This document shows, in pieces, positions 54,906 through 56,081 of a stretch of DNA of 64,000 nt; position 1 is the stretch's first letter, and the number at the start of each line of letters is the position of its first letter. The position numbers and the translations under genes are program-made. A model generated the notes under the pieces. The model saw only the letters and a program-made list of their open reading frames with translations. It did not search any database and was not told the DNA's origin. Source of the DNA: Polyangiales bacterium (lineage in GTDB: Bacteria; Myxococcota_A; Polyangia; Polyangiales; Ga0077539); contig JBGARZ010000002.1 of NCBI GenBank assembly GCA_044229975.1, forward strand, positions 448,001-512,000. The letters run 5' to 3'.

Positions 54906-56081
54906 TCAGCGGACGGCGAGGACGACGCCGGCGCCGATGGTGCGGCGGCCCTCGCGGAGAGCGAAGCGCATGCCCGGCTCCAGACCGACGGGGTGCTGGA
55001 GCTTGAAGCTGACGCGCGTGCGCTCGCCCGGTTGAACCACGTCGTCGGTCACGTGGAGCGTGCCGGTGACGTCGGTGGTGCCGAAGAAGAACTGCGGCGT
55101 GTACCCGCTGGCAAACGGCGTGTGCCGCCCGCCCTCCTTCTCCGTGAGGACGTACAGATCCGCGTCGCCCGCGGCGTGCGCCACGATCGCGCCGGGCACG
55201 GACACGACCTGTCCGCGCACGACCTCGTCGCGCTTCACGCCGCGCAGGAGCAGGCCCACGTTCTCGCCCGCGCGCGCCTCCGGCCGGTCCTTGTGGAACG
55301 ACTGGATGCCCGTCACGACCACCACGCGGGGCTTGGACTCGTCGCCGAGCCCGAGGATCTCGACGCCCGCCCCGACGGGCAGCACGCCGCGATCGACGCG
55401 CCCGGTGATGACCGTGCCGCGCCCCTCGATGGTGAACACGTCCTCCACCGGCATCAGGAACGGCGACGCGAAGTCGCGCTCCGGGTCGGGGAAGTGCGCG
55501 TCCATGGCGTTGACCAGCTCGCGGATGGGCCCCGCGCGCGAGTCGTCGGCGCGGCCCTCCTCCACGGCCTTGATGGCCTGGAGGGCGGAGCCGAGCACCA
55601 CGGGCGAGCCCTCGTAGCCGTGCAGGCGCAGGAGATCCTGCGTCTCCATCACCACCAGCTCCAACAGCTCGCGGTCGGCCACGTCGGTCTTGTTCACGAA
55701 CACGATCATGTGGCGCACGCCCACCTGGCGGGCGAGCAGCACGTGCTCCTTCGTCTGCTCCTGCGGCCCCTGCGAGCCGTCCACGAGCAGGATCGCCCCG
55801 TCCATCTGCGAGGCGCCGGTGATCATGTTCTTCACGTAGTCGGCGTGCCCGGGGCAGTCGATGTGCGCGTAGTGCCGGCGGGCCGACTCGTACTCGACGT
55901 GCGCGAGGTTGATGGTGATGCCACGCATGCGCTCCTCGGGGGCGCTGTCGATCTGCGCCAGCGAGCGCGCGCGACCGCCGTACGTCGCGGCCATCACCAT
56001 GGTGATGGCGCTCGTGAGCGTGGTCTTGCCGTGGTCGACGTGTCCGATGGTTCCGACGTTGAGATGTACCTTGGTGCCCAT
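54906..56081 (-). CDS. tuf: Elongation factor Tu, divergent stand-alone paralogue
   Basis: [50 protein letters not shown]; strong SD AGGAGGT 8 nt upstream. Confidence 0.96.

Follow-up and report, generated by a model that had tools for sequence, protein, structure and literature searches.

The locus examined here raises the question of why a genome with two housekeeping tuf genes should carry a third, divergent copy, and what would call that copy into use. The window, the whole stretch of 64,000 nucleotides that was analysed, comes from a Polyangiales bacterium (assembly GCA_044229975.1, contig JBGARZ010000002.1). A preliminary description proposed that the gene is an analogue of Streptomyces EF-Tu3, acting as an inducible resistance or stress factor in a possibly predatory bacterium. 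The best explanation of the sequence comparisons below, with a probability of about 0.65, is that it belongs to a mostly myxobacterial clade and encodes a back-up carrier of aminoacyl-tRNA (aa-tRNA), which would be switched on by a ribosome-sensing attenuator.

The third tuf gene and the housekeeping copies

The open reading frame is intact and encodes 391 amino acids with the three-domain EF-Tu architecture (PF00009, PF03144 and PF03143). Its profile score for the NCBIfam EF-Tu equivalog TIGR00485 was 523.8 bits against a cut-off of 522.4, and the protein is 57% identical to E. coli TufA (NC_000913.3); the frame, the score and the alignment all agree with the divergent stand-alone EF-Tu first described. 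The GC content at third codon positions is 0.96. The positions of the gene and of its leader elements are listed in Table 1.

The genome (10 Mb, 93% complete) contains two housekeeping tuf copies besides the window gene, which is thus not the sole tuf. One is located on contig C28 downstream of rpsL-rpsG-fusA; the other follows a tRNA-Thr gene and is split over the ends of contigs C32 and C27. They are identical to each other in the parts seen, and the window protein shares 51-53% identity with them. The window gene stands alone, away from fusA/rpsG and from tRNA/secE genes as had been noted, flanked by a DTW-domain gene that converges on it and by an amine-oxidase-like gene. A tRNA scan found no tRNA near it, and it lies outside any tRNA array. 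The DTW-domain protein (window 53663-54850, plus strand) has a C-terminal nuclease-like part and belongs to a tRNA acp3U-type modification family; its gene does not recur beside the tuf paralogues of relatives.

In the housekeeping EF-Tu of the lineage (for example C28:78967-80163) switch I has been rewritten and is longer by two residues, whereas the paralogue keeps the canonical one; among 28 housekeeping proteins of relatives, 24 have K in place of R58. One subclade of the paralogue (loci L059, L090, L102, L120 and L121) carries the housekeeping-type switch I, which suggests that segments have been exchanged between the copies.

Table 1. Features of the tuf paralogue and its leader in the window
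Feature	Position	Strand	Basis or remark
Divergent EF-Tu paralogue, third tuf of the genome	54906..56081	-	ORF, profile score, alignment
Shine-Dalgarno AGGAGG of the tuf paralogue	56091..56096	-	sequence
Second hairpin, between terminator and ribosome-binding site	56102..56127	-	MFE and centroid structure; similar hairpins in close relatives
Terminator-like hairpin, C-rich 5' arm, G-rich 3' arm, short U tail	56141..56184	-	about -27 kcal/mol, covariation
Leader uORF, 34 codons, Ser/Ala-rich, six in-frame TCA	56213..56317	-	sequence
Predicted anti-terminator, located in the uORF and complementary to the 5' arm of the terminator	56237..56248	-	duplex and pairing model
Sigma70-like promoter candidate TTGACA-N17-CATGGT	56328..56356	-	10 nt before uORF start; poor -10

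Distribution, phylogeny and selection

In a protein search 8000 candidates were scored, which gave 943 clusters at E<=1e-150. The best 120 of these clusters share 70-98% identity with the window protein; Polyangiaceae, Pendulispora, Labilithrix, Polyangia and Archangium are named among the matches listed. A motif scan of species-representative genomes yielded 119 loci (about 160 estimated), including 110 family members; the other nine were discarded, five having no match and four, which we read as LepA-like, being only 31-33% identical. Most family record titles name Myxococcota groups, which speaks for the earlier interpretation; a few name Planctomycetota, Alphaproteobacteria, Ca. Thiodiazotropha and one acidobacterium. 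The distribution is patchy: the paralogue occurs in 7 of 31 genomes of the window's taxonomic family, in one of the eight other genomes of its genus, and in 18 of 401 genomes of a phylum sample, many of these genomes being incomplete. In one genus of the same taxonomic family, other EF-Tu copies were seen at 35-38% identity, with altered G motifs and without the paralogue signature.

The family forms one clade with full support (100/100) in a careful 27-row tree. By a simple counting method, dN/dS is 0.06-0.32 in nine paralogue pairs and 0.13 and 0.21 in two housekeeping pairs; on this measure the family is under purifying selection. A search of plasmids returned 87 records, all below 60% identity and none belonging to the family. 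A stand-alone tuf on the Streptomyces linear plasmid NZ_CP109451.1 (locus L052:2477-3661) groups with E. coli EF-Tu (support 100) and not with the actinobacterial proteins. Among public expression data, 17 runs matched, none with half of the gene's sequence words. One metatranscriptome contig of 821 nt spans most of the gene with 88 differences; it comes from a relative and may be DNA, and from contigs neither transcript ends nor starts nor levels can be read.

Substitutions in the protein and the family

Residue counts refer to 82 full-length family members, numbered by alignment to E. coli TufA. The GTPase centre is strongly conserved: the G1-G4 motifs, T61, D80 and H84 are kept in all 82 members and D138 in 81. 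As the preliminary description had stated, the GTPase motifs, H84, A375 and T382 are retained in the window protein, in which D21, K24, T25, T61, D80, N135, K136 and D138 are unchanged as well; so are Q124, G316 and E378.

The alignment also reproduced every substitution listed earlier (Y160H, E259Q, M260S, R262H, R333G and G380R) and the absence of the N-terminal KEKFER segment, and the lineage's housekeeping copies keep Y160, E259, M260, R262, R333 and G380. The substitutions are not equally typical of the family. R333G is found in all 82 members, and R333 is retained in all 28 housekeeping proteins of relatives, in 30 actinobacterial ones and in the tuf3-like proteins discussed below. E259Q (61/82), R262H (64/82) and the replacement of M260 by A or S (68/82) are frequent. 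Position 160 is H in only 36 members (Q in 13, F in 12, with Y retained in 11), and G380 is retained in 61 and R in only 6; Y160H and G380R were hence rejected as family signatures. A375 is retained in 77 members. The family also lacks K2-R7, which are present in the 58 canonical sequences.

Further changes run through the family: A96S (63/82), D109Q (80/82), D141A (72/82), N355R (65/82), and changes at M112 (82/82), K208 (82/82), F304 (80/82), F323, M349 and M351, among them M112Q and F304G. D216 is retained in 29 members (G or N in 46), F218 in 19, E259 in 21 and R262 in 18; the window protein is altered at two of the last three. At the 134 positions that are invariant in the 58 canonical EF-Tus, the window protein differs at 19, and most of these differences are shared by the family, so the substitutions are not due to chance. 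We place the changed residues at the junction of the three domains, in the pocket for the aa-tRNA 3' end and on the surfaces facing EF-Ts. E259, R262 and the N-terminal R7 contact the aa-tRNA or hold the domains together; given their changes, the paralogue may bind aa-tRNA poorly. When the EF-Ts interface positions of M. tuberculosis given in PMC9529903 were mapped, 7 of 10 proved to be kept in the window protein.

Relation to Streptomyces EF-Tu3

The Streptomyces EF-Tu3 (tuf3, SCO1321) corresponds to the 'actEF-Tu2' of Atkinson 2015 (PMC4342817). For comparison, four divergent second EF-Tu copies from large Actinomycetota genomes were used. The label "tuf3-like" is our assumption from their context. 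Like EF-Tu3, the window gene is an extra, stand-alone and divergent EF-Tu beside housekeeping copies, and the tuf3-like proteins share with it a one-residue deletion near position 139 and changes at M260, R262, F323, M349 and M351. The earlier statement that Streptomyces EF-Tu3 has His160 holds in part: His160 is present in the window protein and in two of the four tuf3-like proteins, but not in the other two. The four tuf3-like loci also have an upstream reading frame (uORF) of 31-37 codons running into a C-rich/G-rich hairpin; unlike that of the window, this hairpin begins at the uORF stop codon and lacks a U tail. The tuf3-like uORFs are Ala-rich and lie 90-330 nt upstream of the gene, and the hairpin resembles the myxobacterial terminator arm.

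The differences are nevertheless considerable. The window protein is 53-54% identical to the tuf3-like proteins and thus no nearer to them than to that of E. coli. The tuf3-like proteins retain the N-terminus, R333, E259 and D109, in contrast to the family, and two of the four (L212 and L213) carry R230A, G275A and D216N together with R262G and Y160H. From the set Y160H, D216N, R230A, R262G, G275A and a kept R333, the window protein shares only Y160H; it has D216, R230, H262, G275 and G333. According to PMC7157823, tuf3 is activated by WblC, with a GAAAWY box before the -35 element; inspection of the sequence upstream of TTGACA at 56351-56356 revealed no such box. The actinomycete distribution is not shared either, since the titles of the true matches are mostly from Myxococcota; the best identity to the window protein in 101 Actinomycetota genomes is 59%.

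The tuf3-like set forms its own clade (100/100) in the careful tree, where it sits weakly with the actinobacterial tuf1 (63/83). In a quick 66-row tree the paralogue family stands beside the tuf3-like set (SH-aLRT 88, unstarred), and a tree forcing the two together is not rejected (AU p=0.32). The best reading is that the paralogue would work like EF-Tu3 but belongs to a separate clade with different substitutions, the trees differing on a sister relation. The proposal of an EF-Tu3 analogue stands for an extra divergent copy with an induction device; the careful tree does not place the paralogue in the EF-Tu3 clade, and the substitutions differ.

A putative attenuator upstream of the paralogue

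The leader, which was missed in the preliminary description, spans 56141-56356 upstream of the gene. The uORF has TCA at codons 4, 9, 12, 16, 19 and 32, and if it starts instead at another in-frame ATG, which lies 15 nt upstream, it has 39 codons. TCA makes up 0.146% of the codons in the genome, and only 5 of its 36,054 short ATG reading frames contain at least six. The terminator hairpin begins 28 nt after the uORF stop. The anti-terminator duplex reaches -15.8 kcal/mol, and none of 100 shuffles was as strong. In a pairing model with a masked ribosome, the window's anti-terminator pairing is 0.62 without a ribosome, about 0.65 with the ribosome placed early (0.66 against 0.09 in the shuffled uORF), 0.00 with the ribosome over the segment and 0.50 at the stop codon. 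The modelled switch of the window itself is thus weak at the stop codon (0.50 against 0.65 early). A scan with consensus promoter and terminator models called neither element at this leader, and Rfam gave no match to it. Among the 28 genome hairpins of this type, only the window's has a promoter and a uORF.

Relatives give a fuller picture of the leader. Duplicates aside, 86 family loci had 350 nt or more of upstream sequence. Of these, 55 carry a hairpin in which one arm contains GGGG; its energy is -19 kcal/mol or better in 51, and 50 also have a uORF. Two of the 50 were dropped, since the hairpin ends the upstream gene, so 48 of the 86 loci were kept as having a uORF-terminator leader. The other 38 fail this rule, and the five loci lying in tRNA arrays account for only part of them. 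The same promoter spacing was seen in 26 of the 50 leaders. In the 48 leaders TCA accounts for 6.5% of in-frame codons (99/1528), compared with 0.6% off frame and 0.02% in the tuf genes; 31 leaders have at least one in-frame TCA and 17 have none. The uORF peptides are not conserved in sequence, yet they are Ser/Ala-rich.

In 38 of the 48 leaders the terminator 5' arm finds its best partner within the final 40 nt of the uORF, and in 21 of the 48 this partner beats shuffles at p<=0.05. For the 43 leaders long enough for the pairing model, mean anti-terminator pairing is 0.32 without a ribosome and about 0.65 with an early one; it is 0.11 when the ribosome covers the segment and 0.15 when it has reached the stop. 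With the ribosome at codon 5, the real uORFs average 0.66 and shuffled ones 0.18, and the real value is the larger in 41 of 43 leaders; at the stop, pairing drops in 39 of 43. A protector (1:2) helix, from the uORF start to the anti-terminator, is only suggestive in the model: own pairs beat swapped pairs (0/5000), but only 8 of 43 leaders reach p<=0.05 against their own shuffles, and the window's is not significant against its shuffles. For the terminator stem, 36 of the 48 leaders could be aligned; 85.6% of cells are paired and two-sided changes occur at 10 of 14 pairs, which was matched in 0 of 500 shuffles, although these rows were chosen for having the hairpin, and the kinship of the leaders makes the counts dependent on one another. 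Rfam found only tRNAs, in 14 and 12 loci. The exact terminator motif was rejected as a regulon marker: two of five genomes had a single match to it, in each case at the paralogue. When the criteria were relaxed and the genome was scanned as a whole, 762 hairpins yielded 25 candidates, most of them noisy.

A putative induction device, comprising uORF, anti-terminator and terminator, can be read in the leader and supports the earlier suggestion of an inducible gene. The arrangement resembles the whiB7/wblC attenuator as presented in bioRxiv 2023.06.02.543512, where a uORF with almost no 5' leader and a variable peptide precedes an intrinsic terminator, and the anti-terminator overlaps the uORF end. 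However, the whiB7 leader is Ala-rich and controls a transcription factor, whereas the window leader is rich in Ser and TCA and would control an effector gene directly. The trp- and his-type leader attenuators offer the same class of likeness.

tRNA arrays and sister leaders

At 5 of 92 family loci there are at least three tRNAs around the gene, and none of these five has its own terminator. Two arrays were fetched in full; each comprises 37 tRNAs and an HNH gene, with the paralogue inside, and is headed by a uORF of 100 or 108 codons, which ends in a segment matching the terminator that follows. At another array locus a Ro60/TROVE gene lies downstream. Apart from this, no conserved protein neighbour was found among 271 reading frames from the 92 loci, the largest clusters having four members.

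The window genome has three leaders with a second terminator type, whose duplexes range from -28 to -30 kcal/mol. They precede a tRNA-Arg with Ro60/TROVE, an HNH gene with tRNA-Thr, and four tRNA-Ser genes. In the first (C2:9640-12360, L226), the leader is followed by tRNA-Arg(GCG), a long inverted-repeat insert and then the Ro60/TROVE gene; in the second (C21:31440-32614, L227), a uORF-terminator leader lies ahead of the HNH nuclease gene and tRNA-Thr(CGT). These two are read as pieces of a dispersed tRNA array. In the third (C32:448592-449441, L221), a Ser/Cys-rich uORF of 42 codons and a terminator stand before the tRNA-Ser genes (TGA, CGA, GCT and GGA), and a tRNA-Cys-like sequence is possible just before them, for which ARAGORN made no call.

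Several related observations were made on the way. At locus L236 an 11-codon uORF ending His-His-Pro-His-Arg-Tyr (1945-1910, minus strand) lies directly before tRNA-Tyr and tRNA-His. Behind these tRNAs is a release-factor-like gene (L236:1578-903, minus strand; PCRF and RF-1 domains) with an in-frame CTT-TAG-C after 36 codons; it continues in the +1 frame and resembles the RF2 frameshift site, at UAG. The genome's spare cluster and the arrays contain tRNA-Leu genes of only 73-76 nt without a long variable arm (L228:1219-1613; L222:6144-6393). Lowering the tRNA threshold gave 1296 calls, mostly false, which were rejected.

Long arrays of supernumerary tRNAs (L-arrays) with HNH nuclease genes are stress-induced, as in the trn operon of Anabaena (PMC8421152), and family members lie inside arrays of this kind. 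The Anabaena array is under the control of promoter repeats and a repressor, whereas in the present arrays an EF-Tu gene is included and a uORF-terminator leader stands at the head; the main text of the same paper makes no mention of EF-Tu, tuf or attenuation. In the literature searched, which took in few subscription journals, no description of the family or its leader was found. The family would appear to be the second clade of EF-Tu paralogues that look inducible, one that has a cis attenuator to itself and is connected with tRNA arrays.

Proposed mechanism and alternative explanations

From the leader and the protein the following mechanism may be proposed, in which uORF translation, termination, induction by stalling and protein activity are all inferred. 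RNA polymerase would initiate just upstream of the uORF. A ribosome running through the rare-codon uORF would cover the GAGAGGG segment, so that the terminator folds and transcription stops before tuf. When ternary complex is short, with EF-Tu blocked by a drug or toxin, or tRNA cut or uncharged, the ribosome would stall at the TCA codons in the front half of the uORF; the segment would then be left free to pair with the terminator 5' arm, and tuf would be transcribed. A fall in ternary complex should be felt first at rare codons with a scarce tRNA, so that what the leader senses would be EF-Tu function itself. The paralogue keeps the GTPase centre, and with a rebuilt junction of domains 1, 2 and 3 and a rebuilt tRNA 3'-end pocket it could work where the housekeeping factor is blocked from tRNA.

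Such a protein is likely to be a back-up factor and not simply a drug-resistant copy. Changes of R333 (R333C) give pulvomycin resistance. A literature search for alleles at R333 and Y160 brought up only Y160N, for kirromycin (bioRxiv 2024.02.10.575802). Resistance of the kirromycin type (PMC6685928) and of the bottromycin type (bioRxiv 2025.08.17.670399) is recessive. Because of this recessiveness, a third copy would be of use only where the binding of tRNA is prevented, as by pulvomycin and GE2270A (PMC4307249), or against toxins docking on domain II; beside two sensitive-looking copies, a resistant paralogue should not protect against drugs of the kirromycin type.

A narrower form of the best explanation is that the main job is resistance to elfamycins that prevent ternary-complex formation (pulvomycin and GE2270A-type thiopeptides) from prey or competitors, with the leader sensing the drug stall; this is a serious possibility, although not a probable one. 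It draws on the universal R333G, on A96S, K208 and F304G, all of which we place near the three-domain junction, and on the loss of the N-terminus there. Also in its favour, pulvomycin binds the junction and GE2270A domain II (PMC9529903), resistance to this class is dominant (PMC6685928), and EF-Tu3 is GE2270A-resistant (PMC12309360). Yet G257, G275 and R230, which are changed in known resistant factors or in the tuf3-like proteins, are unchanged in 62, 82 and 75 of the 82 members. Kirromycin- and bottromycin-type resistance is recessive, and the tRNA arrays with HNH and Ro60 genes point to general translation damage instead.

Two unlikely alternatives start from the aa-tRNA side of the protein. 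The paralogue might escape toxins for which domain II of EF-Tu is the docking site (tRNases of the CDI type and comparable effectors encountered in predation), giving a toxin-free EF-Tu pool while spare tRNAs replace the cut ones. The link to tRNA arrays and Ro60 would fit, but the housekeeping EF-Tu would still activate the toxin, the RGITI segment and T382, which we take to be the Doc site, are kept, and no toxin or immunity gene recurs beside the paralogue in the survey of 92 loci. F218, E259 and R262, often changed in the family, are needed for the activity of CdiA-CT(EC869) (PMC9071432). It is similarly improbable that the protein is a specialised carrier for array tRNAs, or for damaged or under-modified ones, with an altered pocket and a weaker dependence on EF-Ts. 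Arrays account for only 5 of 92 loci, and 7 of 10 EF-Ts-interface positions are kept; however, the paralogue does lie inside the two 37-tRNA arrays, and the pocket changes (D216G/N, F218, E259Q, M260 and R262H) are accompanied by others (F323, M349, M351, N355R and D109Q/M112Q) at surfaces that contact EF-Ts (in part from PMC9529903).

It is more doubtful still that the paralogue no longer delivers aa-tRNA and acts in stress as a decoy for inhibitors or a tRNA-shielding GTPase: the 19 changed residues, including E259, R7 and R333, would allow this, but switch I, switch II, H84, R288, R58, T382 and NKxD are conserved family-wide, and EF-Tu3 is just as divergent yet active (PMC12309360). A decaying duplicate with an incidental upstream terminator is scarcely credible in spite of the patchy occurrence within the genus, being already contradicted by dN/dS well below 1 and by the covarying leader, next to hundreds of intact homologues.

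The back-up carrier with its attenuator remains the preferred reading. A joint reading of gene, leaders and arrays, which is offered tentatively and would go considerably further, is that they form an emergency translation kit of myxobacteria. The kit would comprise an EF-Tu of separate evolutionary origin, blind to drugs and toxins directed at EF-Tu and with a reduced need for EF-Ts, together with spare tRNAs and RNA-repair genes. Every component would be switched in cis by a codon-tuned leader attenuator of its own, and not by a master regulator such as WblC or TrcR.

Implications

The family is a second divergent EF-Tu clade, with hundreds of members, and alters residues that are otherwise invariant in bacteria. 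Through its leader the proposed role can be put to the test by a simple reporter, and a translation factor is linked to the tRNA arrays induced by stress. If the paralogue works, it would show which EF-Tu contacts can be dropped, and the family would provide a natural test set for the binding of elfamycins and toxins.
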